Shown: positions 27,443 through 50,703 of the stretch, one piece after another
How the letters are laid out: each line of letters starts with the position of its first letter
How positions within the stretch are numbered: position 1 is the stretch's first letter
From: Bacillota bacterium
Lineage (GTDB): Bacteria > Bacillota > Sulfobacillia > Fermentithermobacillales > Fermentithermobacillaceae
Reading direction: 5' to 3'
DNA length: 64,000 nt
Assembly: GCA_040880305.1 (NCBI GenBank)
Contig: JBBDIP010000049.1
Location: 12,676 to 76,675 of the forward strand
The notes under the pieces: model-generated
What the model saw: the letters and a program-made list of their open reading frames with translations, nothing else
Database searches by the model: none
What the model was told of the DNA's origin: nothing
Translations under genes and position numbers: made by a program

Positions 27443-29191
27443 TCACATACGATTGTCTGTGCCTGCAGCCAAGTGCGCATGCCGGTCGAGCTTGTTGTAT
27501 AGGGTGCGGATGCTGATCCCAAGAAGCCTCGCAGCCTTGGTCTTGTTGCGCCCCGCGCTCTCCAGCGCCTGCTCGATGGCGCGCCTTTCAGCTTCCCCGG
27601 TAGCGAAGCGCAGCTCGACGCTGTCGGGAGAGGCGGCCATCCGAGCCCACTCTTTGATCGAAGGCGCGTCGACGATTGGGGGCAGATGTTCCACCCTCAC
27701 CTCATCGTCCTGGTAGCGCATGTTGATGATAGACCGGCTGAGCACGTTCTCAAGCTCGCGCACGTTCCCAGGCCACCTGTACTGGCGAAAGACCTCCATG
27801 ACCGGGGCCGAAACCCGTTCCACCGAGCGGCCGTACTCCTGATTTAGTTTTCGCAAAAGGACCAGCGTCAGGCCAGGTAGGTCTTCGGTCCTCTGCCTAA
27901 GAGGCGGGATGAATATGGGGATGACGTTCAGCCTGTAGTAGAGGTCCTCGCGGAAGCGCCCTTCGCCCACCAGCTGCTCCAACGGGACGTTTGTCGCGGC
28001 GACGACCCGGACGTCGACCGGTATGGGTTTGGAGTCGCCGACCCGCACAATCTCTTTTTCCTGCAGCACGCGCAAAAGGTGAGCCTGCGAAGAAAGGTTC
28101 ATGACCCCGACTTCGTCCAAGAACAGCGTGCCACCCTCGGCCTCCTCGAAGAGCCCTCGTCTGCCGCCTTTCCGCGCGCCTGTGAACGCGCCGTCAACGT
28201 AGCCAAAGAGCTCGGATTCAAGAAGGCTCTCGGTCAGGGCGGCGCAGTTGACCCTCACGAAGGGCTTGTTCTTCCTTGGCGACGCGCTGTGGACGGCGTG
28301 GGCGAAGAGCTCCTTGCCTGTTCCGCTCTCGCCGCGCAAGAGCACTGTCGCCGAAGTAGCCGCTACTCTCTTGGCCTGGTCAACGGCCTGGGCGGTGAGA
28401 GGACTCACGGACACGACCTCGTCGAAGGTGTACTTGGCCTCCAACTGGCGCACTATCTTCTTCATCCGGTCCAGCTCATCGTTCAGCCGGGCCATCTCTG
28501 ATACGTCGTGCACCACGCCGACGGCGCCCTTGAGCTGGTCGTCCACCATGACAGGATTGACCGATACCACGACCTGCCTGCGCGCCGGGCCGACCTTCAT
28601 GAGCACGTTCTTCACCGGTTGCCGGGTACGCAGGACTTGCATGTGCATACTGGGCTGGCCTTCGGCGATGTCGACCGTGGCGGGTTTCCCGATGATGTCT
28701 TTCTCTGACAATCCGGTGAGCCGGGTATAGGCGGGGTTGATGAGGAGTCCGTTGCCGTCGGCGTCCACCACGGAGATGGCGTCCTGGGTGGCGTCGATAA
28801 TGGCTGTGAGCAACGACTGGACCTGGCGGAGGTTGGTTATCTCCTCGGCCAGGTTCTTTACCTCGGTTATATCCCTAAACACCGCGACCGCGGCCACGAC
28901 GTTCCCATTCTCATCCCTCACCGGCACACGGTTGGTGATAATCTCAGTATCTCCGACCATCTGGCGCTGGTTGATTTCGACCTCTCCAGTCACGAGGACC
29001 CTGTCGAGACGGGTGGTCAAAATGACGTCCCTAACGTGTTTTCCCACCACGTCCTCTGCCTTCTGGCCAATGATCTTTTCGGCGGAGGGGTTGAACACAA
29101 AGATCCTGCCGAGGGCGTCAACCGCTACAATCGCGTCGTGAGTTGCATTGAGTATGAGGTCCATGAGTCGCGTTCGTGCAAGATCCTGCAT
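27443..29191 (-). CDS. sigma-54-dependent transcriptional activator with PAS domains (BkdR-like)
   Basis: Track ORF trimmed to Met67 (MQDLARTRL..), downstream of the spo0A stop. PAS repeats, AAA+ Walker [15 protein letters not shown] motif (DGAFTGA), C-terminal [19 protein letters not shown]. Confidence 0.85.
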
Positions 29192-29262
29192 GTAATGCAC
29201 CTCCGCTTGGTTGTTCGCCAGACGGAGCGCAATCCCTCTATGTAGAAAGTGGCGCCGGGAGG

Positions 29263-30027
29263 TCAGGCACCCAGTCTCAGCCTGTCGGCCACCATCGCGA
29301 TGAACTCGGAGTTGGTGGGCTTGCCTTTCGACTGGCTGATGGTGTGGCCAAAAACCTTCTGAATGAACTCCACATTCCCGCGGTCCCACGCCACCTCGAT
29401 GGCGTGCCTTATCGCCCGCTCGACCCTGCTGGGAGTGGTCACATACTTCTGGGCGATAGTCGGGTACAGCTCCTTGGTTATTCGGGACAGGAGGTCGACT
29501 CTGTCGAATACCAGGATGATGGCGTCACGAAGGTACTGGTAGCCTTTGATGTGGGCCGGGATGCCAAGTTCGTGCATGACAGAAGTAACCTTGGTATCCT
29601 GCCCCTTCTCCTTGTCACGGACGGTGGGAACTCTAGGCGCCGCGACCGGCCCCTTGATGAAAAGCTGCCTCAGCCGTTCGGTGAGGATGTTCAGGTCAAA
29701 AGGTTTGAGTATGTAGTAGTCGGCGCCAAGTTCCAGCACTCTGTGGGTTATGGATTCCTGCCCAAACGCGGTGAGCATGACAATCTTGGGCCGCTTCACC
29801 TGATCCTGCTTGTCCAATCCCTCCAACACGCCGATGCCGTCCAAATAGGGCATTATTATGTCGAGAACCACTACGTCCGGCTCGGTCAGAGAGATCGCCT
29901 CCAGTGCCTCAACCCCGTTGTAGGCCACCCCCACGACCTCGATGTCATCTTGCTTTTCCAGATACTCCCTTAGAAGCCCTACAAATTCTCTATTGTCATC
30001 CACAATTAGGACCCGCATCTTCTCCAT
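29263..30027 (-). CDS. spo0A: sporulation master regulator Spo0A
   Basis: Receiver domain MRVLIVDDN.., C-terminal Spo0A-specific ..[31 protein letters not shown].. Confidence 0.95.
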
Positions 30028-31570: not shown

Positions 31571-33265
31571 TTATGACCGGCTTTTGTAGTCATCCGACGC
31601 TCGTATGAGCTCGCGCGCGTGCTCAAGCGATATGTCGAGGCTGCCGCCCGACAGCATCCTTGCGATCTCGCGGGCGCGCTCAGGGGGAGTCAAGGCGCTG
31701 ACCGTGGCGTACGTGCGCCCGTCCTTTTCTTCCTTGGAGACTAGATAGTGGTTGTCGGCCAGCGCTGCGATGGACGCAAGATGGGTCACGCAGAGTATCT
31801 GGTGGCTTCTTCCAAGCTCCCAGAGTTTTTCACCCACGGCCTGACCGGCGTTCCCGCCAATCCCGGCGTCAATTTCATCGAAGATTAGAGTTGGAACGGG
31901 GTCAACCGCTTCCATGTGGGACTTCACTGCCAGCATCAGTCTGGAAAGCTCTCCGCCCGAAGCCACCTTGTTGACGGGCATCGGCGGCTCGCCTGGATTG
32001 GCCGAGAACATGAAACCCACTTTGTCGAACCCATACGGCCCCGGTTCGGCCTCCTGCTCTATCTTGACGCTGAACCTGGCGCCGGGCATCCCAAGTTCTT
32101 GAAGGCTTGCCAACACATCCTGCTCCATGGCCCGCGCGACCTCCCGGCGCAGGCCGGTCAAATTGGCGCCCAAAGACGCCATCTGCTTTCCAATTCCGTC
32201 GAGCTCCTGCCGCAGTCTGGCCAGGGTTTCGTCTGCGTGGACAAGCTCATCGAGGCGGGTCTTGGACAATGCGGCAAACTCGGTGATCCTCTCCACGGTC
32301 TCCCCGTACTTGGATTTCAGGCGCTCCAAAAAATCAAGTCTCTCGGAGATGACGCGCAAGCGCTCCGGGTCAAGCGCCAGTCGCTTGCGATAGTCGCGCA
32401 AGACGTCGAGCGCGGCTTCCAAGTCGAAGGCTACCTGCTGGGCGGCGTCGAGGGCTTGTCCGACTGAAGGATCAATCGAGAGCACCTTACGGAGCTGGGC
32501 TACGGCCTGATCCACTGCCTCTCTGGCGGACCTGTCCGACCCGCGGCTCCCTTCGTACAGCGCCTCGTAGGCGCCACCTGACAGCTCCACCAGCCGCTCC
32601 TGTGAGGATAAGACTCCGTATTCCTGGCGGAGCTCGTCTTCCTCACCCGCCTTTAGCTTGGCCTTGGCAATCTCATCTACCTGATAAGCCAAGAGGTCTA
32701 TCTCGCGTTGCCGCTCGCGGTCTCCCCTGTCAAGGTCCGAGAGGCGCGCAAGCACGGACTGGCGCTTGCGGTAGAGGTCGTTGAACGCGCGGGAGAGCGA
32801 CTCCAGCGCGTCTTTACGGAGGCTGTCCAATATGGAAAGGTAGTTTTGGGGTCGGAGTAGCGAGTGGTGTTCCTGCTGGCCGTGGATGTCTACCAGACGG
32901 CCGCCAAGTTCCTGCGCCATGGAGGCCGTGGCCAGATGGCCGTTTACCCGGAGGTACGACCGGTCGGCCAAAATATCCTTCTGCAGGACAACGTCTCGGG
33001 TTCCCGACAGTGCGGCAAACAGCGGGTCGTCGGGGCCGCCCGGCAGTCCCTCAGGCAGGCCGGCAAGCATCTCGACTACGGCCCGCTCCTCTCCCGTCCG
33101 GAGCAGTTCGCGCGAGGTCCTCTGCCCCAAGCAGGCCAGGACCGCTCCCACCACCATGGACTTGCCGGCCCCCGTCTCTCCGGTGAAGACCGTGAGCCCT
33201 TCGCCCAGATCGAGCCTAACCGAAGAGAACAGGCCGAAATTCCTAATAGAAAGGTAGGAGATCAT
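31571..33265 (-). CDS. recN: DNA repair protein RecN
   Basis: Walker A GETGAGKS, long coiled coil, signature ..ASGGELSR.., Walker B LIFDEIDAG. Confidence 0.93.
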   Translation of the reverse strand: MISYLSIRNFGLFSSVRLDLGEGLTVFTGETGAGKSMVVGAVLACLGQRTSRELLRTGEERAVVEMLAGLPEGLPGGPDDPLFAALSGTRDVVLQKDILADRSYLRVNGHLATASMAQELGGRLVDIHGQQEHHSLLRPQNYLSILDSLRKDALESLSRAFNDLYRKRQSVLARLSDLDRGDRERQREIDLLAYQVDEIAKAKLKAGEEDELRQEYGVLSSQERLVELSGGAYEALYEGSRGSDRSAREAVDQAVAQLRKVLSIDPSVGQALDAAQQVAFDLEAALDVLRDYRKRLALDPERLRVISERLDFLERLKSKYGETVERITEFAALSKTRLDELVHADETLARLRQELDGIGKQMASLGANLTGLRREVARAMEQDVLASLQELGMPGARFSVKIEQEAEPGPYGFDKVGFMFSANPGEPPMPVNKVASGGELSRLMLAVKSHMEAVDPVPTLIFDEIDAGIGGNAGQAVGEKLWELGRSHQILCVTHLASIAALADNHYLVSKEEKDGRTYATVSALTPPERAREIARMLSGGSLDISLEHARELIRASDDYKSRS

Positions 33266-33267
33266 TG

Positions 33268-33723
33268 CTAGAGACCAGCTATCTTCCTGAGCGACTCCAA
33301 CATCTCCTGTGACGAATTGGTTTCTCTTACCACAACCAGGACTGAATCGTCTCCCGCGACGGTGCCCAGGACGCCGGGGAGTTTGAGAGCGTCGATGGCT
33401 TCGCCCACAGCCGAAGCTGTGCCGTCAATGGTTTTGACCAATATGATGTTTAGCGACCTGTCCATGTCAAGACAGCAATCGGTGAAGAGCCGCCTAAAGC
33501 GTTCACGGTATACCAAAGAGGGGTCGCCAGGCATGAGGGCGTATTTGTACCTGCCGTCGCCGGACGGCACCCTGACCAGGTTCATCTCCTTGATGTCTCG
33601 AGAGACTGTCGCCTGGGTGACATGGATGCCCTCGCGCGAGAGCGCCTCACACAGGCCTTCTTGACTGGTAATCACGCTTTGTGATACCAGCTCAACGATC
33701 CTCATCTGTCTTTTAGCTTTCAT
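33268..33723 (-). CDS. argR: arginine repressor
   Basis: Winged-helix ..GIHVTQATVSRDIKE.., C-terminal ..GTVAGDDSVLVV.. Confidence 0.9.
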   Translation of the reverse strand: MKAKRQMRIVELVSQSVITSQEGLCEALSREGIHVTQATVSRDIKEMNLVRVPSGDGRYKYALMPGDPSLVYRERFRRLFTDCCLDMDRSLNIILVKTIDGTASAVGEAIDALKLPGVLGTVAGDDSVLVVVRETNSSQEMLESLRKIAGL

Positions 33724-33762: not shown

Positions 33763-34650
33763 CTACCTTGGAAGCCTGTCAGCCCCTTCCTTCATCTTTC
33801 GGCGCAGCACGTCGTAGAACGACCACTCGTTACGCCGGAGAAGGACCACTCTTAAACCTGAGGTGGACACTCGGACTCGGTCGCCTGCGTACAGCGGCAG
33901 GAACTCCTGCCCGTCTACTGACAGCGAGGTCGACTGGCTTGGTTCGACCACTTCGATCTCACAGGGCTCGGACGACGGCACTACCATTGATCTGGAATAC
34001 AGGGTGTGCGCGCAAACCGGCGTCACCAAGAGCGCGTCTATCTCCGGTGACATGAGGGGTCCGCCTGCGGACAACGAGTATGCCGTGGAGCCTGTGGGGG
34101 TAGCCACTATGACCCCGTCGGCGAAATAGGTGTCCACCTCGTTGCCGTGGACCCGAAGAGTGAGAGCCGTCATGCGTCCGTACGGGCCTTTAATGACAGC
34201 AGCCTCATTCATGGCGATGCTCTCATACACCTTCCGGCCTTCCCGGAAAACCTGCGCTGTGAGAGTGATCCTCTCATCCCTCTTACACGCGCCGGAGATG
34301 AACGAGGGCAACGCCGTGAACAAGTCGATAGATTCGAGTTCGGTTAGGAAGCCAAAATGCCCAAGGTTGACGCCTAGAAGCGGGATCCCCAGGGGGCCCA
34401 AAGCCCTCGCCGCGCCAAGGAGCGTGCCGTCCCCGCCCAAGACTATCGCGAAATCCGTGTTCGAGGACCATTTGTCCAGGGGCAGACTAGTCTGGGGCAG
34501 GCCAAGCATTTGGGCAACGCATGACGGAAAGTAGCCGACATGCCCCCGCTCTCTCAGCCAATCAAAGAGCTTTGCGGAAAGCTCCCTGCTGCCTTCCTTC
34601 TCGAGGTTAGGGTAGATACCTATTCTTCTTCCCGTCGGCTTGTCCGTCAT
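33763..34650 (-). CDS. nadK: NAD kinase
   Basis: GGDGT motif (VLGGDGTLLGAAR), ..GVNLGHFGFL.., ..ATPTGSTAYSLSAGGP.. Confidence 0.9.
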   Translation of the reverse strand: MTDKPTGRRIGIYPNLEKEGSRELSAKLFDWLRERGHVGYFPSCVAQMLGLPQTSLPLDKWSSNTDFAIVLGGDGTLLGAARALGPLGIPLLGVNLGHFGFLTELESIDLFTALPSFISGACKRDERITLTAQVFREGRKVYESIAMNEAAVIKGPYGRMTALTLRVHGNEVDTYFADGVIVATPTGSTAYSLSAGGPLMSPEIDALLVTPVCAHTLYSRSMVVPSSEPCEIEVVEPSQSTSLSVDGQEFLPLYAGDRVRVSTSGLRVVLLRRNEWSFYDVLRRKMKEGADRLPR

Positions 34651-36527
34651 TTCCCTTTTCCGAGTGCTTCCTGCACTCTCGCGGCGATGGACCTAGCGTC
34701 GAGGCCGTAAACCTCCCGCAACTTGGCCTGCGACCCGTGCTGCAAAAACCTCTCGGGCAAACCCACCTTGAAGACCGCAGCGCGCTCATTGTTGGATAGG
34801 GCGTCCACAACCGCCTGCCCAAATCCGCCCGACACGACGTTTTCTTCCAACACCCAAACTGGACCCTTAATCGCTGCCAGAGAGATCGTCGAAACGTCCA
34901 GAGGCTTGCTGAACCTGGCGTTCACAACCCCACACGAAATACCCTGTTCTCGTAAGATCTCCGCAGCCGCGACGGCAGGGGCGACCATACTTCCCAGGGC
35001 AACCAGGTTCGCATCCCTCCCCCATGACAGCACTTCGGCCTTTCCCGGCTCCAGCAATTCGGGGGCATCCAGCGCACTCAAATAGTCCACCCCCACCGCC
35101 GCGCCTCTCGGATACCTGACTGCGCAGGGCCCGGGGATGCGGAGCGCGGTATACAGCATGTCGACCAGTTCCTTTTCATCCTTGGGCGCCATGATTGTGA
35201 TACCGGGGACAGGGTTCAGATACGACAGGTCGAATTCACCATGGTGGGTTTCTCCGTCCTCTCCGACAAGTCCTGCACGGTCTATGGCGAACACTACCTT
35301 CTGCCCCTGCAGGCACACGTCTTCGATTATCTGGTCGTACGAGCGCTGCAAGAATGTCGAGTAGATCGCCACTACCGGAAGCATCCCACCCTGGGCGAGA
35401 CCCGCCGCGAAGGTGACCGCGTGACTCTCTGCTATGCCCACGTCGAAGAACCTATCCGGGTATCTGGCCTTGAACTCGTTCAGCCCGGTCCCGTCCGACA
35501 TGGCCGCCGTTATGGCGACAATCCTCGGGTCGTCCTTCGCGAAGCGACACATAGCTTCGCCGAACACTTTGTTCCACGCGACTGAGTCGTTGTTCTTGAA
35601 GATCTCTCCGGTAACCGGGTCGAAAGGGCCCGGCCCGTGGAACTTCTCGGGCTCCTCTTGGGCAGGAGCGTAGCCGCGTCCTTTTTGGGTGACCACGTGG
35701 ACCAGGACCGGCTCCCTCAGCATCTTGGCTTCTTCGAAGACCTTCTGCATAGCGGATATGTCGTGACCGTCGATGGGGCCGTAATAGCGGAAGCCTAGCG
35801 ATTCGAACCACGCCTCAGGAAACAAGAAGTACTTGAGGCCGCCTTTTAGCCTCCGCAAGAGGCTCGCCGCTTTCTTCCCCAAGCTTGGCATGCGTTCAAG
35901 AAGGCGCTCGACCGTCTGCTTGGTCGACCGGTACAAAGGCGCCAAGCGCAAAATCGTGAGGTAATACGAGATGCCTCCAACGCTCTCGGATATTGACATG
36001 GAGTTGTCGTTGACCACCACGATTAGGTTGGTCCTGGAATCGCCGGCGTTGTTTAGGCCCTCAAAGGCCACGCCCGAGGTCAACGCCCCGTCACCGATGA
36101 CCGCCACTACTTTGTAGTCCTCTTGGCGAAGGTCCCTGGACTTGGCCAGCCCGAGAGCATACGAGATTGACCCCGACGCATGCCCGGTGTCATAGATGTC
36201 GAACGGGCTTTCAGCCCGCTTGGGATAGCCCGAGATCCCGCCGAACTTCCGCAGCGTGTGGAAGTTTTCATATCGTCCTGTCACCAACTTGTGGGCGTAC
36301 GACTGATGGCCGACGTCCCACACGATCTTGTCGTCCGGCGTGTGAAATACCGTGTGGAGAGCCAGGGTCAACTCGACGACTCCGAGAGATGAGGCCAGAT
36401 GGCCTCCGTTCTTAGAGACCGTCGCGACTATCTCTTCCCTAATGGCGCGCGCGATCTCATTTAGATCGCGCACCGTCATGCCACGCAGGTCAGAAGGAGA
36501 TTTTACGTCAGAGAGTTTCCGAGTCAT
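34647..36527 (-). CDS. dxs: 1-deoxy-D-xylulose-5-phosphate synthase
   Basis: Track ORF trimmed to Met13 (MTRKLSDVKSPSDLR..), an ATGA overlap with the upstream ORF. ..GGHLASSLGVVELT.., TPP motif IGDGALTSG. Confidence 0.93.
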   Translation of the reverse strand: MTRKLSDVKSPSDLRGMTVRDLNEIARAIREEIVATVSKNGGHLASSLGVVELTLALHTVFHTPDDKIVWDVGHQSYAHKLVTGRYENFHTLRKFGGISGYPKRAESPFDIYDTGHASGSISYALGLAKSRDLRQEDYKVVAVIGDGALTSGVAFEGLNNAGDSRTNLIVVVNDNSMSISESVGGISYYLTILRLAPLYRSTKQTVERLLERMPSLGKKAASLLRRLKGGLKYFLFPEAWFESLGFRYYGPIDGHDISAMQKVFEEAKMLREPVLVHVVTQKGRGYAPAQEEPEKFHGPGPFDPVTGEIFKNNDSVAWNKVFGEAMCRFAKDDPRIVAITAAMSDGTGLNEFKARYPDRFFDVGIAESHAVTFAAGLAQGGMLPVVAIYSTFLQRSYDQIIEDVCLQGQKVVFAIDRAGLVGEDGETHHGEFDLSYLNPVPGITIMAPKDEKELVDMLYTALRIPGPCAVRYPRGAAVGVDYLSALDAPELLEPGKAEVLSWGRDANLVALGSMVAPAVAAAEILREQGISCGVVNARFSKPLDVSTISLAAIKGPVWVLEENVVSGGFGQAVVDALSNNERAAVFKVGLPERFLQHGSQAKLREVYGLDARSIAARVQEALGKGK

Positions 36528-37093
36528 CTCCTCGCGCCCGTCCTTCCTAGCGCCGCTAACCAAAGACGCCTTAATCTGCCAAGCAAAAGGATGATGGTTT
36601 CAGCGTACTTCAAAGCAAACGGCTTGGAAAGGGCTTTGGCTCCTACGGAAAGAAACGACGCGACACCCACGGCCGCGCTCGCGAGGTAGACTTGGTTCAA
36701 AGCGGGAAACCCCGCCCGCACACGGAAGGCCATCGCCACCGCCAGCGCCCCCGAAAGAGTCGCCGAAACATCACCCATCAGATCGCTAAATACGGAAGAA
36801 ACCCGAGAAGCGTTCCTTACAAACCACACAGCCTCTCTCGCCCCCGCGACCCTGCGCGAGCTCATCGATAGGAGTGACTCCTCTTTGGCCCGCGCGCTGG
36901 CGAGGCCGACGGCGTCGGAGACCACTCCTAGCAGGACCACGCCCAAGAACAAGGGGACGGTGAAACCAAGCGGAATTCGTCGTGAGAGGTTTTCTAACGA
37001 TAGGTTCATGCCAAAGCTCAGTAAGAAACCGGCCAGCGCGAGGCCGAGACACTGCAGGTACCATCTGAGAATGCCGGTTTTCCTCTTCGCCAT
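36524..37093 (-). CDS. oapA: small polytopic membrane protein, candidate OLE-associated protein OapA
   Basis: 189 aa, about four hydrophobic segments, SDLMGD (D-x-x-x-D) inside one of them. Its position between a long non-coding gap and dxs is the published OapA context. No alignment to OapA was possible by eye. Confidence 0.5.
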   Translation of the reverse strand: MAKRKTGILRWYLQCLGLALAGFLLSFGMNLSLENLSRRIPLGFTVPLFLGVVLLGVVSDAVGLASARAKEESLLSMSSRRVAGAREAVWFVRNASRVSSVFSDLMGDVSATLSGALAVAMAFRVRAGFPALNQVYLASAAVGVASFLSVGAKALSKPFALKYAETIILLLGRLRRLWLAALGRTGARR

Positions 37094-37099
37094 TAAATG

Positions 37100-37715
37100 G
37101 TTAGGTTCTCGCCTCCGAGGGGCAGCGCATGCAGTAAATCTTGTGCCTTTAGGTCCAGCAGGATTTCCCGCCGGCCAACCCCCGCTTCCGCGTTGGGCGG
37201 TTCCCCTTTAAGGCCGGCCTGCCGCGTCACCGTTGGCAGAGCTGGATCACCACTTAGTGCACACCGCAACCCCGCACGCGCCCGCATAAGACAGTCTAGG
37301 AGTTTTCCTCAAAGGCCCCTGTCCCTAGCCTTTTTTGCAGCCGAGCTTTCAGGAGGAACCATCCTGCCCGGCCACTCAAGACAGGCCATGTCTCTTGTTA
37401 AGGACACAACCGATAAGACGCGAATTTCTCCGGTCTTCGCGAAAAAAGGGCATACAGCCTACATGCCATTGTAGGTTTCCCTTTTTTCCTTCTCCCTAAA
37501 GAAGCCGGAAGCTGGGCGCAACCAGCCTCTTAAAGGGCGAACTCCGGTTCTGGCCCACGACGGATTTTTAGCCCCGCCTTTGGAACAGGTCAGCCCACTA
37601 GAATACTGCGCCCTCTCGGAGGAGGAACGCATCACGTATTATAGGGGATATGCTGGGCAAATGCAAATCCTGGCCTGTGCCAGCCGCTGAAACGCCAAGG
37701 CCCGGCTTACCGCTA
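37100..37715 (-). ncRNA. ole: candidate OLE (ornate, large, extremophilic) RNA; boundaries approximate
   Basis: ~620 nt without a credible ORF between ispA and the OapA-like gene. Many GC stems visible by eye. Size and synteny (xseA-xseB-ispA-[RNA]-membrane protein-dxs-nadK-argR-recN) match the described OLE locus. The consensus was not checked. Confidence 0.5.
37638..37666 (-). promoter_or_regulatory. sigma-A-like promoter element TTGCAT-N17-TATAAT
   Basis: The minus strand reads ggatTTGCATttgcccagcatatccccTATAATacg. The -10 is perfect, the -35 matches 3/6. It lies inside or at the 5' end of the OLE candidate and could be fortuitous. Confidence 0.35.
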
Positions 37716-37718
37716 TGT

Positions 37719-37997
37719 GGCCAGGGATGAACCATGTCTATCCTGTATGGCTACCGGCAGACCGTGATTTGAGGGGATGTAACCAAGGATGGACCGTTTC
37801 CTTAGAGGATCTGGCCACCGGTGAACCGTTTCCGCCAAAGTGACTATGGACAGCCCATGTTTCGAGGAAAATAACCACTGATGAACCAGATCCGCCCAAG
37901 AACCGGCTACTGGCGAGCCATATCCTTTGACGTAACCATCTGCAGACCATATTCGCGGGAGAAGCGACTACTGGCGGGCCGAATCAACTCCTGAATC
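37719..37997. repeat. nine degenerate direct repeats at 29-32 bp phasing
   Basis: 15-nt cores start at 37719, 37749, 37781, 37813, 37842, 37873, 37905, 37934 and 37966: ggccagggatgaacc, ggctaccggcagacc, aaccaaggatggacc, ggccaccggtgaacc, gactatggacagccc, aaccactgatgaacc, ggctactggcgagcc, aaccatctgcagacc, gactactggcgggcc. Consensus RRCYAnnGRnRRRCC. Confidence 0.8.
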
Positions 37998-38064
37998 GTG
38001 GCGGGGCTGAGAGTTGGCCCCACGTTCCACGGATGCGGGACTCGCTTGGCGCGCTTTGCAGCGT

Positions 38065-38922
38065 CTAGGTGGCTCGGATCAGGTATCTCCTGGTCAGGTC
38101 CTCGGCCAGCGTAGCGCGGCCCTTGAAATGGCCGAGGAGCGCGAGGGCGGCTTCCAGAGCCTCTTTGGCTTCGAGGCAGGCCTCTTCCCGCGAAGTCTCC
38201 CTCGCCAGGGTGTCCTTGTCCTGCTCCTTCTGGCTTTGGTCATCGTCTTCGAGGTCGTCGAGCACTTGGAATGCGTAGCCGAACAGTGAACCCCATTCGC
38301 CGGCAGCGTCTTCCGTCTCCTGCGGAGCGCCGGCTAAGATGGCTCCTAGCCTGGCAGAGGCCTGGAAAAGCGCGCCGGTCTTAAGAGCGTACATCTTCCT
38401 CACCTTATCGGCGCCGCCGGGACTGCGTTCAAAGCCCAGGTCAAGAATCTGGCCTCCGACCATCCCGGACGGGCCGGCAGCTCTTGAGAGGGTCGCTAGG
38501 CCACGGACTACCCGGTCAGGCGGCAATGAAGGCGAGCGCGCAGCCACCTCGAAAGCCGCTGTGAGGAGCGCGTCACCGGCCAGCAACGCAGTCGAATAGC
38601 CGAACTTTTTGTGGCAGGAGGGTTTGCCGCGGCGAAAGTCATCGTCGTCCATGCAAGGGAGGTCGTCGTGGACAAGGGAGTAGGCCTGGATCATCTCGAG
38701 CGCAGCGGCAAAATCCAGGGCTTCTTCGGCCTGCCCGCCCAGGGCTTCGAAGAAACACAGCAAGATGGAGCCTCTCAGCCGCTTCCCGCCTTCGAGGGCG
38801 TAGGCGCAGGCGTCCCGCAAGACCTCGCCACACTGGAATTCTGCAGGTACCGCCTGCACATGGCGGTCGACAAGCGCCTTGTACCGCTCAAGCGTGTCTT
38901 GTGACAACGCCTTTCCTCCCAA
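38065..38922 (-). CDS. ispA: farnesyl/geranylgeranyl diphosphate synthase
   Basis: First DDxxD region LVHDDLPCMDDDDFRRGKPSCH and second FQVLDDLED. Confidence 0.9.
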   Translation of the reverse strand: MGGKALSQDTLERYKALVDRHVQAVPAEFQCGEVLRDACAYALEGGKRLRGSILLCFFEALGGQAEEALDFAAALEMIQAYSLVHDDLPCMDDDDFRRGKPSCHKKFGYSTALLAGDALLTAAFEVAARSPSLPPDRVVRGLATLSRAAGPSGMVGGQILDLGFERSPGGADKVRKMYALKTGALFQASARLGAILAGAPQETEDAAGEWGSLFGYAFQVLDDLEDDDQSQKEQDKDTLARETSREEACLEAKEALEAALALLGHFKGRATLAEDLTRRYLIRAT

Positions 38923-38929
38923 CGCCGTT

Positions 38930-39145
38930 CTATTCCTTCGGCTGGTCTTCGGTGGGGTTCAGGATCTCCTTGACCTTGCGCTCCGCGCGGTCCAGGACTC
39001 TCTCCAACTGCCTCGCCAGGCTTATTCCTTCCTCAAACTTGCGAAGGGAATCCTCCAGCGAGAGTTCGCCGCTCTCCAGCGACTTGACGGTCTCCTCAAG
39101 CTTCTTCAGAGCCTTAGCGAACTCGAGGTCTTTGGCGGCCATCAC
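38930..39145 (-). CDS. xseB: exodeoxyribonuclease VII small subunit
   Basis: 71 aa, ..FAKALKKLEETVKSLESGELSLEDSLRKFEEGISLARQ.. Confidence 0.9.
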   Translation of the reverse strand: MMAAKDLEFAKALKKLEETVKSLESGELSLEDSLRKFEEGISLARQLERVLDRAERKVKEILNPTEDQPKE

Positions 39146-40374
39146 TTTCCCTCCTCAGGGGGTCTTGAGTCTTCGACCAGGCAACGCAACGAGCCCCTAA
39201 ACAATGACACGTCCAACCGGGTGCCGGCCGGCGCATCCTTGTGGTCGCGAACTATCGCACCGTCCTCTGCCCTGCGGGCCAGGCTGAACCCTCTTGAGAG
39301 GATCTGTAGCGGGCTCAGGGCGTCAAGTGAGGACGCGACGTTGGCAAGCCCTGCGCGCGCCCTTTCCAGTAGTGCCTGGACGGCGTCTTCCAGGTCTTCG
39401 CGCAGGCGGACCAAAGACTCCCTGGATGACACCAAGAACCAGTCTGGCCGCTCCAGCGCGGGCCTTTGGCGCAGGAGGCTCAGGGTTTGACGCAGCCCGC
39501 CAATCAGCGTGTAGACCTGATTGCGCATTCCTTCCTCAAAGGACTGGACTTCCTGCCGCAGATCGATAGCATTTGGCACTACCATCTCCGCGGCCTGTGA
39601 GGGAGTGGCTGCCCTCGCGTCGGCGACCAAGTCGGCGACAGTGAAATCCCGCTCGTGTCCGACGGCCGAGACAACCGGTGCTCTGGACGAGTAGATGGCG
39701 CGGGCGACAACCTCGTCATTGAAGACCCAGAGGTCCTCCTGAGAGCCTCCTCCTCTACCGACCACGATGACGTCTACCTCCGGCAGTTCATTGAGGGTGC
39801 GGATCCCGCGGGCGATGTCCTTGGCGGCCCCATCGCCCTGGACTTTGGTGTCGGCTACCGCGAAAGCAACGCCTGGATAGCGACGCCGGCCAACCGAGAC
39901 TATGTCCTTTATCGCGGCGCCCCGGATCGAGGTGACCAGGCCGATGGTGCGCGGGAAGGCAGGGAGAGGGCGTTTGCGCTCCTCGGCGAATAGCCCCTCC
40001 GCCTCCAGCCTCTGTTTGAGTCTCTCCAGAGCGGCGTAGAGAGCTCCGAGGCCGGACGGCTCCATGTAGGTCGCGTAGACCTGGTAGACACCATCCCGCT
40101 CAAACACGGAGACGTTGCCCGCGACCAGGACTTCGGATCCATCAGTGGGGACAAAGGTGAGTCGCGCCGCGTCGGTCCTCCACATGACAGCCTTGACCGA
40201 GCACTTCTGGTCCTTGAGGGTGAAGTAAAGGTGCCCCTGATAGTTGCGGATATTGGCGATCTCGCCCCGGACCAGAACTTGCCGCAGGAGCTCGTCCTTC
40301 CAAAGGACGTCCTTGACGTAGGAGTTGAGCTGGCTGACTGTGAAGGCGCTATCGGATTGGAGCATCACGAGCAC
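39142..40374 (-). CDS. xseA: exodeoxyribonuclease VII large subunit
   Basis: OB-fold N-terminus ..FTVSQLNSYVKDVL....V.GEI.N.......GHLYFTLKD.., 4-nt overlap with xseB. Confidence 0.9.
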   Translation of the reverse strand: MLVMLQSDSAFTVSQLNSYVKDVLWKDELLRQVLVRGEIANIRNYQGHLYFTLKDQKCSVKAVMWRTDAARLTFVPTDGSEVLVAGNVSVFERDGVYQVYATYMEPSGLGALYAALERLKQRLEAEGLFAEERKRPLPAFPRTIGLVTSIRGAAIKDIVSVGRRRYPGVAFAVADTKVQGDGAAKDIARGIRTLNELPEVDVIVVGRGGGSQEDLWVFNDEVVARAIYSSRAPVVSAVGHERDFTVADLVADARAATPSQAAEMVVPNAIDLRQEVQSFEEGMRNQVYTLIGGLRQTLSLLRQRPALERPDWFLVSSRESLVRLREDLEDAVQALLERARAGLANVASSLDALSPLQILSRGFSLARRAEDGAIVRDHKDAPAGTRLDVSLFRGSLRCLVEDSRPPEEGK

Positions 40375-40457: not shown

Positions 40458-41855
40458 CTAGGCCCAGGTCTCCTGGTTGCCGTTGAGGTACTCGTCGATG
40501 TCCTTGGCAGCCGCCTTGCCGGCGCCCATGGCCAGGATGACAGTGGCGGACCCGGTGACAGCGTCGCCGCCAGCCCAGACCCTGGATTTGGTGGTGCGGC
40601 CGGCCTCGGTGGCTCTGAGCCCGCCCCAATCCTGGGCATCCAAGCCAGGGGTGGTGGTCGGGAGGATCGGGTTCGGCGTAGTGCCGAGGGCCATGATCAC
40701 AATGTCGCAGTCCATGACGAACTCGGAGCCTGGGATGGCCACGGGACGCCTTCGCCCGGACTTGTCGGGCTCGCCCAGTTCCATCTTCACGCACTCAAGG
40801 CCGGTCACCCAGCCCTTTTCATCGCCGATCACGCGGATGGGGTTGGTCAGGAGATGCATCTCCACGCCTTCTTCCTCGGCGTTCTCCAACTCCTCCAGCC
40901 TTGCCGGCATCTCGGCGCGGCCCCTGCGGTACACGATGCATGCCTTTTCGGCGCCCAGCCTAAGGGCGCAACGTACCGAGTCCATCGCCACATTCCCTGC
41001 CCCAACGACCGCGACTCTCTTGCCGCGCTTCACGGGAGTGTCAAACTCGGGGAACAAGTAGGCCTTCATCAGGTTGATCCTGGTCAGCCACTCGTTGGCC
41101 GAGTAGACGCCGTTAAGGTTCTCGCCGGGGATGTGCATGAACATGGGGAGACCCGCGCCCGAACCGACGAAGACGGCCTGGTACCCATCGTCGAAGAGCT
41201 CGTCGATGGTGATGCTCCTGCCCACGACCACGTCGGTCTCGATCTCGACTCCCAGCTGCCGCACGTAGTCTACTTCACGCCTCACAACGTCCTTGGGCAG
41301 ACGAAACTCGGGTATGCCGTATATCAGCACGCCGCCCGCTGCGTGAAGCGACTCGAAGATTCTGACGCCGTAGCCCATCTTGGCCAGGTCGCCGGCGCAG
41401 GTAAGTCCCGCGGGGCCGGCGCCCACGACGGCCACTTTCTTGCCGTTGGTCTGTGGCTTTTCGACCTTGCTGCTTCCGTGCAGAGCTTCCCAGTCGGCCG
41501 CGAACCGCTCGAGGCGGCCGACGGCGATGGGCTGGCCGGTCCTGAATAGGACGCACTTGATCTCGCACTGGTGTTCCTGGGGGCAGACCCTTCCGCAGAC
41601 GGCGGGCAGGTTGTTGGTCTCTTTGATGGTGTCTATGGCTGATTGAAAGTTCCTATCCTTAAGGTACTTGATGAAGTTGGGAATCTTGACTGCGACAGGG
41701 CATCCCGTCATGCAGAGCGGATTCTTGCACTGGAGGCAACGGGCGGCCTCTCCGATAGCCATTTCTTCAGTGTATCCCTGCGCGACTTGTTCGAAGTTGG
41801 TAGCCCTTTCCTTGGGGTCCTGCATGGGCATTGCTGTCCTTTGCTTGACGGGCAT
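40458..41855 (-). CDS. nfnB: NfnB / glutamate-synthase small-chain-like NADPH-dependent FAD oxidoreductase
   Basis: N-terminal Cys clusters (CLQCKNPLCMTGCP, CGRVCP..C), Rossmann motifs VAVVGAGPAG and VAVVGAGNVAMD. Paired with a PyrK-like subunit. Confidence 0.82.
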   Translation of the reverse strand: MPVKQRTAMPMQDPKERATNFEQVAQGYTEEMAIGEAARCLQCKNPLCMTGCPVAVKIPNFIKYLKDRNFQSAIDTIKETNNLPAVCGRVCPQEHQCEIKCVLFRTGQPIAVGRLERFAADWEALHGSSKVEKPQTNGKKVAVVGAGPAGLTCAGDLAKMGYGVRIFESLHAAGGVLIYGIPEFRLPKDVVRREVDYVRQLGVEIETDVVVGRSITIDELFDDGYQAVFVGSGAGLPMFMHIPGENLNGVYSANEWLTRINLMKAYLFPEFDTPVKRGKRVAVVGAGNVAMDSVRCALRLGAEKACIVYRRGRAEMPARLEELENAEEEGVEMHLLTNPIRVIGDEKGWVTGLECVKMELGEPDKSGRRRPVAIPGSEFVMDCDIVIMALGTTPNPILPTTTPGLDAQDWGGLRATEAGRTTKSRVWAGGDAVTGSATVILAMGAGKAAAKDIDEYLNGNQETWA

Positions 41856-42691
41856 TAGTTGTCACCTCCACAGCTGGCGCAGCGCTCGTTGGCGATCTTC
41901 TCTTCGTCCCGGTACAAATTGGCCCGGCGCCACGCCTCCTGCCAGTCGACCTCATGTCCGTCGAACATGGGACCGTCAACGCAGCAAAACTTGGTCTTGC
42001 CGCCCACCGTGACGCGGCACGCGCCGCACATCCCGGTGCCGTCGACCATGATGGGGTTCATCGAAACCCAGGTCTTCAGCCCAAAAGGTTTGGTAACGTC
42101 GCAGACGGCCCTCATGGCGGGCATGGGCCCTATTGTGACGACCTCATCGACCTTTAGACCTTTCTCTATGAGCTCCTTGAGCTGGTTGGAAATATACCCG
42201 TGAAAACCGCGGCTGCCGTCGTCGGTGCAGATGAACACAGCATCTGAGCAGGCGCGCATTTGGTCTTCAAGGATGATGAGATCCTTGGAGCGGGCGCCTA
42301 TGATTGAGATGACCTTGACTCCCCGCCTGTGCAATTCCTTGGCTTTGGGGAGGCAAGGAGCGACTCCGACTCCGCCGCCCGCGATCACGACGATGCCTTT
42401 TTCGGGCAGCTCTGCCGGGACACCCAGCGGTCCCACCAAGTTGAGGATGCAATCGCCGGCTTCGAGGCTGCCAAGAAGCCGTGTGCTGAACCCGACCTCC
42501 TGGAAGACCAGCGTGATGGTGCCATTCTCCCGGTCGTAGTCGGCGAGGGTGAGAGGTATGCGCTCACCCTCCTCGCGGACGCGCAGGATAATGAACTGCC
42601 CAGGCTGGGCCTTGGCTGCCACGTAGGGGTTTCTTACGACGATCAGTTTGGTGACGGGGGTAAGGACCTGCTTCACGAGAATGTCGTTCAT
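41855..42691 (-). CDS. nfnA: NfnA / PyrK-like FAD and [2Fe-2S] subunit
   Basis: Track ORF trimmed to Met36 (MNDILVKQVL..), downstream of the nusB stop. RIPLTLADY FAD motif, C-terminal GTGMCGACRV cluster motif. Confidence 0.8.
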   Translation of the reverse strand: MNDILVKQVLTPVTKLIVVRNPYVAAKAQPGQFIILRVREEGERIPLTLADYDRENGTITLVFQEVGFSTRLLGSLEAGDCILNLVGPLGVPAELPEKGIVVIAGGGVGVAPCLPKAKELHRRGVKVISIIGARSKDLIILEDQMRACSDAVFICTDDGSRGFHGYISNQLKELIEKGLKVDEVVTIGPMPAMRAVCDVTKPFGLKTWVSMNPIMVDGTGMCGACRVTVGGKTKFCCVDGPMFDGHEVDWQEAWRRANLYRDEEKIANERCASCGGDN

Positions 42692-42770
42692 CCCATCTAT
42701 CCTCCAGTTTCTTTTTAGAGAGCACCGCCGCGAGATTGCTTGTCCAAGAGATACGGCGACACGTTTAATT

Positions 42771-43214
42771 TTACTCTTCTGAGGCTTTCTTGGCATGCCC
42801 CATTTCGCGGAAGACTGCTACTAGCACCCCGTTGACGAACCTCGGCGACGCGTGGGTGGAGAACTCCTTTGAGAGCTCCAGAGCCTCGTCGATCACGACT
42901 TCGTCAGGGGTCTTACCGAGGTAGATAGCCTCGGCCACCGCCAGCCTGAGTATGGAAAGGTCCACCCGGGGCATCCGGGGCAGGGGCCACCCTTGCGAGG
43001 CCTTAGCGAGGAGAGGATCTATCTCGCCCGCATGGGCGACCGCGGAGAGGAAAAGCTCCTTGGCGTAGTCAAAACGGGCGCTCCCCTCGAAGTAGCTCTC
43101 GACGACCTGGGCAAACACCACGTCAGGGGCGTCTTTGGAAATCTCCCAACAAAAAAGCGCCGATAGCGCCAGTATTCTGGCGTCGTGCCGTCTCATCTGC
43201 CCTGTTGTGATCAA
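42771..43214 (-). CDS. nusB: transcription antitermination factor NusB
   Basis: ..RILALSALF..E.., ..VDLSILRLAVAE.., ..EALELSKEF....PRFVNGVL.. Confidence 0.9.
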   Translation of the reverse strand: MITTGQMRRHDARILALSALFCWEISKDAPDVVFAQVVESYFEGSARFDYAKELFLSAVAHAGEIDPLLAKASQGWPLPRMPRVDLSILRLAVAEAIYLGKTPDEVVIDEALELSKEFSTHASPRFVNGVLVAVFREMGHAKKASEE

Positions 43215-43468: not shown

Positions 43469-44008
43469 CTAACGCCGGCCTTCCAGCGAGATGTCTGAGA
43501 CCGACACCCTCACCGAATCAACAGTCACACCCACAATGTCGTGGACGTAGGAAGACGTGGCTTTTTGCACTTTGTCAGCAAGATCCGGCAGGTTGGCGTC
43601 CGACGCGACTTTTAGGTCAAGCGCCACCTGAATGCCTGTCCCCAACGAGTTCAGCTGGACGTGGGTGCGGACTTCCCTCACTCCCGGCGTTCTGGAAGCT
43701 ACGCGGGTGACCAGGCTCTTCACCGCGACCAGCGAGATGTTGACCTCGCCCATCCCGGTATTGTGGACCACTGCCTGGGCGGGCGCTCTCTTGAAACCGT
43801 AGTAGATGAAGCGGAGTCCGGCTAAGAAAATGAGGCCTGAGACGATACCGGTGGCTGTCCGCCCCGAGGGCATCCTGAGCGTGTCAATGATCAGGTCCAC
43901 TGGGGCGTTCCATCCAAAAGAGGTAAGAACCACCATGAAGGAGACCACGGTGAGGGCCAACGCATAGAGGCTTAGGACCACTCTATCGACGATTCCCAAG
44001 AAAACCAC
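43469..44008 (-). CDS. alkaline-shock-response membrane anchor protein AmaP-like
   Basis: 179 aa, N-terminal TM segments, immediately downstream of the Asp23 gene. Confidence 0.7.
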   Translation of the reverse strand: MVFLGIVDRVVLSLYALALTVVSFMVVLTSFGWNAPVDLIIDTLRMPSGRTATGIVSGLIFLAGLRFIYYGFKRAPAQAVVHNTGMGEVNISLVAVKSLVTRVASRTPGVREVRTHVQLNSLGTGIQVALDLKVASDANLPDLADKVQKATSSYVHDIVGVTVDSVRVSVSDISLEGRR

Positions 44009-44012
44009 CCCG

Positions 44013-44396
44013 CTAAGAGTTTTGGTCGGATTCAGGCTTCGCCGCGTCTTGGAACGTCACGCCTTGGATGTGGATGTTGACCTGCGAAACCTTCAAATCG
44101 GTCATGCCCTCCACGGATTTCTTGACGCTCTCCTGCACTTTGAAGGCCAACTCAGGGATTCTGGCGCCGTACTTGACTGCTAGGTAGAGATCCAGCGTGA
44201 CGTCCTTATCGGCGGACGCGACTCTGACTCCTTTGGCGGTGTACTTCCTGCCCAGGATGGCCCCTCCGATGTCGCCCACGATATTCCCTGCCATTGCGGC
44301 GACTCCTTGGACCTGGGATGCAGCTACGCTGGCTATTGCAGCAATGACGTCGTCGGATATCTTGACTTCCGAGCTCCCCGGGGTGTCTTCCGGCAC
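44013..44396 (-). CDS. Asp23/Gls24-family stress protein
   Basis: ..KISDDVIAAIASVAA..V.GV.., ..GVRV......V.LDLYL.V.YG..IPE.A..VQE.V...VE.MT.L.V..VN.. Confidence 0.88.
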   Translation of the reverse strand: MPEDTPGSSEVKISDDVIAAIASVAASQVQGVAAMAGNIVGDIGGAILGRKYTAKGVRVASADKDVTLDLYLAVKYGARIPELAFKVQESVKKSVEGMTDLKVSQVNIHIQGVTFQDAAKPESDQNS

Positions 44397-49499: not shown

Positions 49500-49841
49500 C
49501 TAACCTAAGAGAGTTACTAGCCGGCCGAGGATCTCGGCCATCACGCTGTCGGGGAGCGAGCATACAAATTGCGCCCTTCTAGCCTGCCAGTCCAGGCTCT
49601 TCACCTGGTCAGACAACACAACGCCAACGATTGGGAGTCCATCGGGGATGGCCACCTCAAAAGGATAGCCTTTGACCAAAGACGTAATGGGACAGAAAAT
49701 CCCCAAGCCGACCTTCTTGTTGTACTGCAGCGGGGATAAGGTCACCGCTGGCCGAGTCCCCATCTGCTCGTGCCCTAGCTGGGGGTCGAAGGAAAGCCAC
49801 ACAATATCGCCTCTGGAGGGAGCATAGGCGCGCTCCATCAC
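49500..49841 (-). CDS. mazF: MazF-type endoribonuclease toxin
   Basis: Colinear by eye with E. coli MazF (GDIVWLSFDP..G.EQ.G.RPAV.LSP..YN.K.G.....P.T...KGYPFEV......DGV.L.DQVKS.DW.AR). Confidence 0.9.
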   Translation of the reverse strand: MMERAYAPSRGDIVWLSFDPQLGHEQMGTRPAVTLSPLQYNKKVGLGIFCPITSLVKGYPFEVAIPDGLPIVGVVLSDQVKSLDWQARRAQFVCSLPDSVMAEILGRLVTLLG

Positions 49842-50077
49842 CAGGTCTCCTTCCCAACGGGGCCGCCAAACTGGACCTCGCGGTGGATGTTGTCCTTGGT
49901 GACCTTGGACAGCAGTTCCTTGAGAGTAAGAGTCCTGGGGGCCTGCCGGATTACCAGCCTATCGCCGTCGATCGAGAGAGTGACTGGAGATCCGGGTCGG
50001 AGGTCCATCTCGGAAGCGAATGCATTCGGGATTCGGAGCGCCAGGCTGTTGCCCCATTTCTGAACGGTGGTTTTCAC
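49838..50077 (-). CDS. mazE: MazE antitoxin (AbrB/SpoVT fold)
   Basis: ..VQKWGNSLALRIP.. and the C-terminus ..TLKELLSKVTKDNIHREVQFGGPVGKETW parallel E. coli MazE. Start set to GTG at 50077 (GGGGGG 9 nt upstream); the track uses TTG at 50086. 4-nt overlap with mazF. Confidence 0.87.
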   Translation of the reverse strand: MKTTVQKWGNSLALRIPNAFASEMDLRPGSPVTLSIDGDRLVIRQAPRTLTLKELLSKVTKDNIHREVQFGGPVGKETW

Positions 50078-50118
50078 GAGTTCCAACCCCCCTTGCGTAT
50101 CTACAATGATTATACATG

Positions 50119-50174: not shown

Positions 50175-50384
50175 CTACTGAGGCTGCTTGTACTGCGGCT
50201 TCTGTCCTTCAATCTCGCTCAGCCTGGACTCCAGCGAATCCGCTATGGTCTTGGTCTGTGCGGCCGCTGACTGGTAGAGCTGTTTGGCGGTCGGATTGTC
50301 GGTGTCGAGCGCGAATCCCTCCAGGGACGCGTTCGCGCTCTTCAGGCTCGCAACGCACTGCTTGACCTTCAGAGGAACGGTCAT
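50175..50384 (-). CDS. DUF1657 small protein (spore-associated family)
   Basis: Track ORF trimmed to Met11. ..VKQCVASLKSANASLEGFALDT.N..AKQLY..........I...LE.R...IE...PQYK matches my recollection of the DUF1657 pattern. Confidence 0.65.
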   Translation of the reverse strand: MTVPLKVKQCVASLKSANASLEGFALDTDNPTAKQLYQSAAAQTKTIADSLESRLSEIEGQKPQYKQPQ

Positions 50385-50703
50385 ATCGTCACCCCCGTAG
50401 AAGCGTCTGCACACTAGGCTCAGTTGATACAGGCCCTGTCCGCATCGCTGGTTCTACGGATGACCCAATCCTGACTACTGGATATACCTCACCCTTCGCT
50501 ACTGTTCAGAAAAACCACCCCAGACACGCGAGGAGCGTTTCGGCTTGGGCCCCAGCGATCGTGTCTCATGCAGGTCATGCGCTCTTCGCTCATTTCCGGT
50601 GCTTAATATTAGTGAGATATACATTTACAACATTAACTAACCTGAGAAGGAATGTCACATTGTCTGTGGAACATTCAAGGTGGAGAAAGAAGGGGTGTAT
50701 TTC

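Follow-up and report, generated by a model that had tools for sequence, protein, structure and literature searches.

A compact OLE RNA and its adjacent OapA-like protein gene between ispA and dxs in a spore-forming Bacillota lineage

Introduction

What occupies the long interval between ispA and dxs on a 64-kb stretch of contig JBBDIP010000049.1 (hereafter the window), which comes from an uncultured, spore-forming Bacillota metagenome-assembled genome (MAG) related to Ca. Fermentithermobacillaceae? On the minus strand, ispA is separated by 971 nt (37094-38064) from an open reading frame (ORF) of 189 amino acids (36524-37093), which in turn runs into dxs. A sequence-only reading had drawn attention to this gap, which we confirm, and had proposed that it encodes an OLE RNA followed by oapA, the gene of a small membrane protein. 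Among bacterial non-coding RNAs without an assigned biochemical function OLE is one of the largest, and each well-defined natural variant is therefore useful comparative material; in Halalkalibacterium halodurans it has been documented as an abundant, stable, protein-bound RNA. Using an Rfam 15 scan of the whole window, Pfam scans and an ORF listing, together with comparisons across related genomes, we find that the RNA is an OLE RNA with a conserved structure and an obligate pairing with the neighbouring protein gene. We put the probability at about 95% that this is an ole-oapA locus, in which an OLE RNA of ~528 nt with its own sigma-A-type promoter is followed by oapA and dxs-nadK-argR-recN. 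The locus adds one more example of an established RNA-protein system, in a shortened version that earlier work has covered. It is a clear but ordinary case; it brings no new kind of element, and its value is as comparative material.

Results and discussion

An OLE RNA lies directly upstream of the 189-aa ORF

The Rfam OLE model (RF01071) matched the minus strand at 37103-37630 with 306.5 bits (E = 2.7e-86, gathering score 50), spanning model positions 1-616 without truncation, and was the sole Rfam hit above threshold in the 64 kb. This match to the covariance model, which the sequence-only reading had suggested as a check, supports the suggested ole-oapA locus together with the OapA-like behaviour of the 189-aa protein described below. 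The non-repetitive, structured part of the gap singled out by that reading is indeed the OLE RNA, although the upper limit of 37715 placed on it overshoots both the RNA and its promoter (37667-37638), and the expected sizes of ~620 nt and ~600 nt were somewhat too long because the OLE found here is a shortened form of 528 nt. The gap had also been described as lacking a credible ORF, and this was borne out: only short ORFs of 54-125 aa occur between 37094 and 38064, and third-position GC of the two longest is 0.49 and 0.57, compared with 0.67-0.85 in the flanking genes. A coding reading of the gap was therefore rejected.

Other features that mark an OLE RNA are present as well. The conserved loops and junctions CUAAAAAU, GCGCCCAG, CAAUGGCAUG, GAGGAAAACUCCUAGACUGU, ACUAAGUGG, UAAAGGGGAACCGCC and GGGAAAUCCU all occur in the window RNA and are invariant or nearly so across its clade; the RNA sits right upstream of oapA, on the same strand, within the ispA/dxs neighbourhood; and the host belongs to the Bacillota, with relatives among Ca. 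Fermentithermobacillaceae and a window rich in sporulation genes. A predicted sigma-A-type promoter (37638-37667, minus strand; promoter scan 10 of 12, with the sequence read directly) comprises a -35 box TTGCAT (37666-37661), a 17-nt spacer and a -10 box TATAAT (37643-37638). It ends 7 nt ahead of the first base matched by the Rfam model, and the predicted transcription start (~37631) coincides with the first Rfam-matched position. A TATAAT or TATAGT box was present just 5′ of OLE in nearly all related loci. We infer that ole is transcribed from this TTGCAT-17-TATAAT promoter. No terminator-like site was found between the OLE RNA and oapA.

The fold is conserved by compensatory change

Across 20 OLE RNAs of the clade (504-547 nt, mean column identity 76%), RNAalifold run de novo, without the Rfam reference, recovered 138 pairs, 51 of which carried compensatory changes. 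Standard pairing was observed in 98.4% of cells, compared with 92.0% after shuffling; for all five pairing measures 0/500 shuffles reached the observed values, and sliding the 3′ partners as a control reduced pairing to 38-52%. The structure was derived from the alignment on which it was scored, a circularity that to some degree works in its favour; even so, the margin is large. The result for the window is a 528-nt structure with about 27 helices, among them the long-range P1, P2, and P3 plus P3.1, these last two together making up 11 bp. P1, a CUAG/CUAG helix and P3 plus P3.1 are left unpaired in the Rfam consensus line. A P3/P3.1 of about 12 bp is the proposed membrane-spanning stem of OLE (Lyon & Breaker 2025), and our fold agrees with the architecture put forward in that work.

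Helix names at window coordinates, all on the minus strand, were mapped from the text of PMC12265935. P1 (RNAalifold columns 13-21 with 553-560) pairs a 5′ strand CCUCCGAGAGGGC (37610-37622), beginning with CCUCC, the letters of an anti-Shine-Dalgarno sequence, with a 3′ strand GCCCCUCGGAGG (37112-37123, from sequence and fold coordinates), and shows a compensatory change from CCGAG/CUCGG to UUUGAG/CUCAAA in one sub-clade. A hairpin at 37559-37578 with the A-rich loop CUAAAAAU, invariant in 20/20 clade sequences, was assigned to P4, and two long hairpins at 37441-37537 with loops GCGCCCAG and CAAUGGCAUG were assigned to P5/P5.1 and P6/P6.1 from the Rfam alignment, the clade alignment and the fold; these loops, too, are invariant in the clade. 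In models from cryo-electron microscopy (cryo-EM), P4 is a dimer contact, and P5/P5.1 and P6/P6.1 touch the partner RNA through kissing loops and contain the k-turn region to which OapC or bS21 binds (PMC12265935). The 3′ domain, P10-P15 (37124-37282), is intact, with high posterior support in the Rfam alignment and covariation, and retains the sequence features defined as OapB-binding determinants (PMC7936274).

A reduced architecture shared by a whole clade

Departures from the full-length OLE plan are concentrated in the middle of the RNA and are best seen against two distant loci, from a Clostridiales MAG (L024) and Dysosmobacter (L025), whose OLEs are full-length at 666-668 nt and score 397-399 bits (399 for L024). 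Model positions of about 198-285 are mostly missing from the window RNA, leaving a vestigial J6/7-P7-P8 region (37384-37433, from the Rfam alignment and the comparison with L024) of ~45-50 nt, compared with ~115 nt in L024. P9 (37328-37382, from the same evidence and the clade alignment) is truncated: its stem closes with a 5-nt loop immediately beyond the conserved GGAU/UGAAA internal loop, and its distal arm of ~48 nt, with a palindromic UGGCCA loop at the tip, is absent (5 nt vs 48 in the model), whereas L024 has it. Both the P7/P8 reduction and the P9 truncation are common to the whole clade. A full-length-type OLE has a full P7, a full P8 and a long P9 with a palindromic terminal loop, none of which the window RNA shows; with P7/P8 largely deleted and the P9 arm missing, it is therefore filed as a reduced variant.

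The full-length OLEs of H. halodurans and Clostridium acetobutylicum share with the window RNA the conserved blocks, P1-P6, the span from the base of P9 to P15, the GNRA-capped P13 and P14.1, a full-model Rfam match, the place between ispA and oapA-dxs and a Bacillota host. They differ from it in length (about 610-670 nt vs 528 nt) and in the state of P7/P8 and of the P9 distal arm with its UGGCCA kissing loop, vestigial and missing, respectively, in the window. The sequence of P1 also departs from the OLE consensus (CCUCC.../...GGAGG in the window, GUGGU/ACCAC in the consensus), and oapA starts 9 nt past the RNA, compared with 26-31 nt in L024 and L025.

Reduced OLEs have been described before, as variant 1 with shortened P7, P8 and P9, and variant 2 without P7/P8 (Fernando & Breaker 2024, PMC11332333). 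The window RNA resembles both, sharing a short P7, P8 and P9 with variant 1 and the near-complete loss of P7/P8 with variant 2. Its Rfam score of 306.5 bits falls inside the published variant 2 band of 235-310 bits, just under the variant 1 threshold, although those cut-offs come from a different covariance model (PMC11332333). Taken together, the window OLE corresponds to published variant 1 shading into variant 2. Variants 1 and 2 are known mainly from TANB77 and RF39 gut symbionts, which have reduced genomes and are often without the OapB site, OapB and OapC (PMC11332333). In contrast, the host of the window RNA is a spore-former with a full sporulation gene set, and its OapB-binding features are intact. 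A compact 528-nt OLE with strong covariation is thus conserved in a spore-forming, probably thermophilic Bacillota lineage (relatives of Ca. Fermentithermobacillia), so that the range of reduced OLEs extends beyond genome-reduced gut symbionts. In cryo-EM dimers the P9 loop provides one of the four contacts between the RNAs, while P7 and P8 are not dimer contacts and are missing in some natural OLEs (PMC12265935). The loops of P4, P5.1 and P6.1 persist in the window RNA, as do the P3 stem and a complete 3′ domain with its OapB site. In nature, an OLE can do without the P9 arch and its kissing loop, but not without those three loops, P3 and the OapB site.

The 189-aa protein as a divergent OapA

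To follow the protein encoded downstream of the RNA, one genome per GTDB species was scanned for loci encoding relatives. Twenty-five loci encode a homologue, most of them in Ca. Fermentithermobacillaceae or other Bacillota MAGs, with L024 and L025 as the two distant members (36% identity). In 25/25 homologue loci Rfam identified an OLE directly upstream and on the same strand, at an OLE-oapA spacing of 3-31 nt.

Hydropathy of the 189-aa protein gives four predicted transmembrane (TM) segments at residues of about 11-33, 40-64, 99-123 and 132-155, and the motif S103-D104-L-M-G-D108 lies inside the third; the earlier description of about four hydrophobic segments with SDLMGD in one of them holds. 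Both aspartates, D104 and D108, are conserved without exception in 29 homologues, and in L024 and L025 as well. Between TM segments 2 and 3, a basic loop (residues 68-97) carries R68, K70, R80, R81, R86, R93 and R97, of which R93 is invariant, and this cluster would face the cytoplasm. An AlphaFold model built from an alignment of the 29 homologues is all-helical, and in Foldseek searches against the PDB its top matches were the magnesium transporter CorB (7m1t_B, 7m1t_A and 7m1u_A, probability 1.00) and the CorC TM domain (7cff/7cfg, 0.99). A profile search of PDB sequences with the protein gave chance 14-3-3 matches only, and the relationship to CNNM proteins is visible at fold level only.

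The link to OapA was drawn through proteins encoded beside full-length OLEs. The 189-aa protein is 36% identical (E = 6e-30) to the product of the ORF that follows the 399-bit OLE of L024, and a profile of both groups joins the clade proteins and OapAs beside canonical OLEs at E ~1e-68 and retrieves 5,087 proteins, mostly of 180-195 aa and many with the CNNM domain PF01595. Given OLE in 25/25 loci, the identity to the L024 protein and the reach of this profile, the 189-aa protein is, by sequence comparison, assigned as the OapA of a divergent subfamily. It shares with known OapA a gene directly downstream of ole, a size of ~20 kDa, four predicted TM helices, DxxxD in a TM helix, a basic and putatively cytoplasmic cluster, and a CNNM-like fold with CorB as top structural match; the top structural hit of H. 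halodurans OapA is 7M1U, and DxxxD separates OapA from CNNM domains, which lack the motif (Fernando & Breaker 2024, PMC11332333). It differs in being only 30-36% identical to OapAs beside full-length OLEs and in lying under Pfam PF01595 detection. An identical protein is on record as a "hypothetical protein" of the MAG "Bacillota bacterium", and the same oapA is also contained in sequencing run SRR27977663. Pfam and NCBIfam miss this divergent OapA subfamily, whose annotation is hypothetical. Being small and GC-rich and coming from a likely thermophile, the OLE-OapA pair could suit structural work on the full ribonucleoprotein.

Helix P1 and the translation start of oapA

The ATG of oapA (37093-37091) starts 9 nt past the Rfam 3′ end, and throughout the clade this distance is 3-11 nt. 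The only Shine-Dalgarno-like sequence before oapA in the window is GGAGG at 37116-37112, 18 nt upstream of the ATG and within the 3′ strand of P1. The same holds across the clade, where the only consistent Shine-Dalgarno-like element is the P1 3′ strand (GGAGG in one sub-clade, AGAGGAG or GAGGUGA in another), whose partner at the 5′ end is CCUCC or CCUCU, and the pairing covaries. In L024 and L025, by contrast, a GGAGG stands apart from the RNA, 26-31 nt downstream of it, and the arrangement with the Shine-Dalgarno sequence in P1 was not seen there. GGAGG in the P1 3′ strand may serve as the ribosome-binding site of oapA. Its distance of 18 nt is too far for a good site, and a sole Shine-Dalgarno-like element placed in P1 and so far from the ATG suggests that oapA translation may be weak or may depend on RNA folding. 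A stronger version of this idea, which we regard as doubtful, is that the folded RNA would mask the ribosome-binding site of oapA and tie OapA synthesis to OLE folding or processing. If true, this would amount to a built-in stoichiometry control of OapA, which has not been described for OLE, and the clade would also show a free-living spore-former managing with an OLE that lacks the P9 kissing-loop dimer contact.

Proposed function and alternative explanations

In H. halodurans, OLE is recruited to the membrane by the OapA dimers that bind it, and OapB, OapC and bS21 dock at defined positions along the RNA. Knock-out strains cope poorly with ethanol, cold, excess Mg2+ and poor carbon sources, and OapA has been proposed as a divalent-cation transporter with kinship to MpfA. 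By analogy, the sigma-A-type promoter in the window would drive transcription of ole, probably supplemented by read-through from ispA, and the RNA would fold into two domains joined by P3/P3.1. Dimers of OapA, a putative four-helix, CNNM-like membrane protein, would bind the RNA and hold it at or in the cell membrane, and the resulting ribonucleoprotein would help the cell against short-chain alcohols, cold, excess Mg2+ and poor carbon sources, probably by modulating OapA-mediated handling of divalent cations. Dimerisation here would have to manage without the P9 contact. Membrane localisation, dimerisation, a stress function and ion transport are, on the strength of this literature, most likely features of the window system as well.

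Several observations weigh against this interpretation of the locus as an ole-oapA system. Loss of the P9 kissing loop means that the published dimer architecture may not hold unchanged. Genes for OapB (KOW/SBB, YbzG-like) and OapC (YbxF/L7Ae-like) were not found among the small ORFs checked in the window, which represents 64 kb of the genome. The 189-aa protein has no Pfam match (max_evalue 10) and no NCBIfam match (max_evalue 1), the Foldseek E-values are weak (best 9.9e-3), and the AlphaFold model is of medium confidence (predicted local distance difference test score (pLDDT) 72.5, predicted template modelling score (pTM) 0.52). The OapA assignment was made via proteins beside full-length OLEs; H. 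halodurans OapA (BH2780) is not named among the best 120 of the 5,087 profile matches and did not appear in the genome scan with the 189-aa protein, where clade relatives plus two Oscillospiraceae-type loci were the only matches. Expression, processing, membrane localisation and function are all carried over from H. halodurans and would apply here by analogy.

Could the deletions of P7, P8 and distal P9 instead mark a loss of function, leaving a decaying OLE pseudogene? The RNA scores ~90 bits under the full-length OLEs of L024 and L025 (306 vs 397-399) and lacks ~140 nt relative to them, as a remnant might. However, the same reduced architecture is common to more than 20 species-level genomes, with 98.4% pairing, 51 compensatory pairs and long invariant blocks; the promoter is conserved and oapA intact in every locus; and such variants, in which the lost P7 and P8 are not dimer contacts, have been published as functional classes. 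Covariation in the 20 clade OLEs therefore leads us to reject the pseudogene explanation for practical purposes, and we consider its chances negligible. A different doubt concerns the protein, which might be a stand-alone fragment of a CNNM/DUF21 Mg2+ transporter of the MpfA/CorB family whose adjacency to the RNA has no functional meaning. Its TM-domain fold does resemble those of MpfA, CorB and CorC (7m1t, 7m1u, 7cff and 7cfg), and some relatives with weak PF01595 matches are named "CNNM domain-containing protein". A CNNM transporter, however, combines the CNNM TM domain with a CBS pair and CorC_HlyC, whereas the window protein, at 189 aa and without Pfam domains, has neither; it carries the DxxxD that CNNM domains lack (PMC11332333), has four predicted TM segments against three in CorB, and is always paired with the RNA, in 25/25 loci and at 3-31 nt, all of which makes an independent transporter very improbable.

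The same proximity could be taken the other way, with the structured region acting mainly in cis as a riboswitch-like 5′ leader of oapA-dxs and not as a stable, trans-acting component of a ribonucleoprotein. That oapA begins 9 nt past the RNA, that its sole Shine-Dalgarno-like sequence is the P1 3′ strand and that no terminator was found between the two would all suit a leader. Yet the sequence is unambiguously OLE, an RNA known to be abundant, stable and protein-bound in H. halodurans, and no known leader comes near 528 nt with about 27 helices. An influence on oapA in cis could accompany a ribonucleoprotein role and need not replace it. We rate a mainly leader-like element as improbable, and retain the ole-oapA system, in its reduced form, as the reading of this locus.

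The ispA-ole spacer

Upstream of the ole promoter, the remainder of the spacer contains a degenerate tandem array at 37704-37980 (minus strand), with nine units of 29-32 nt, each headed by GGTYCRYCNGTGGYYA, a motif that clusters only in this interval. The array was visible by autocorrelation and a degenerate pattern only, Tandem Repeats Finder reporting nothing in the ispA-ole spacer, and its periodicity (~31 nt) was reached by 0/500 dinucleotide shuffles. The closest genomic relatives, L001 and L002, have no such array, and their spacers are 101-129 nt long. Repeats of other kinds occur upstream of the OLE promoter in several related loci: 62-nt units, four times, just upstream of the promoter in L017 (2757-3004), a periodicity of about 31-32 nt in L008 (3060-3450) and L027 (1700-1850), and 52-nt units in L029 (1-160). 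These are tandem or palindromic, and their sequences are mutually unrelated. L027 also has a ROK-family gene inserted in this interval, between ispA and ole. Searched with nhmmer, the window gave no match to a profile built from the L017 unit, and a 6-mer scan gave only a marginal enrichment of GCGGAA (10 observed vs 1.3 expected, inflated by tandem copies); these results lend no support to a shared binding motif. The spacer seems to be a hot spot of insertion and expansion. A regulatory role of the array is possible and unsupported, and the array may lie outside the OLE system altogether.

Gene order and host context

The order of genes around ole, xseA-xseB-ispA-ole-oapA-dxs-nadK-argR-recN, was confirmed by Pfam. 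All lie on the minus strand: xseA (39142-40374), xseB (38930-39145), ispA (38065-38922; polyprenyl synthetase, PF00348 polyprenyl_synt, E = 2.5e-45), ole (37103-37630), oapA (36524-37093), dxs (34647-36527 from its ATG; DXP_synthase_N, E = 1e-115), nadK (33763-34650), argR (33268-33723) and recN (31571-33265). The overlap reported between oapA and dxs can be read as ATGA at 36527-36524, the TGA of oapA (36526-36524) overlapping the ATG of dxs (36527-36525); with dxs read from this ATG, the DXP_synthase_N match begins at residue 5. OLE neighbourhoods often have a tlyA/rrmJ-like methyltransferase gene between dxs and nadK. Here that gene is absent, since the dxs stop overlaps the nadK start and the two genes share 4 nt (34647-34650).

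The wider order is that of classical Bacillota, running from efp through the spoIIIA operon, two Asp23/YqhY-like genes, nusB and two Fe-S/NAD(P)H oxidoreductase genes to xseA, xseB, ispA, ole, oapA, dxs, nadK, argR, recN and spoIVB. Sporulation genes are numerous in the window and include spoVA, spoIIM and a HATPase_c_2 (anti-sigma-factor-type) kinase gene; this richness fits the reported correlation of OLE presence with sporulation. The two Asp23/YqhY-family genes stand in tandem upstream of nusB (43469-44396, minus strand), and the literature counts yqhY among the genes with the most frequent linkage to ole.

Further neighbours on the minus strand were noted. After spoIVB, the position of spo0A in Bacillus, a sigma-54 activator with PAS domains is encoded (27443-29389), and no spo0A was seen among the window ORFs scanned. 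Between nusB and xseA, where many Bacillota have folD, the oxidoreductase genes (40458-42796) encode a GltD/SudA-like protein with Fer4_20 and Pyr_redox_2 domains and a SudB-like protein with a DHODB-type Fe-S domain. A MazE/MazF (PemK) toxin-antitoxin pair (49500-50086), adjoined by a DUF1657 gene (50175-50414), has been inserted upstream of the spoIIIA operon.

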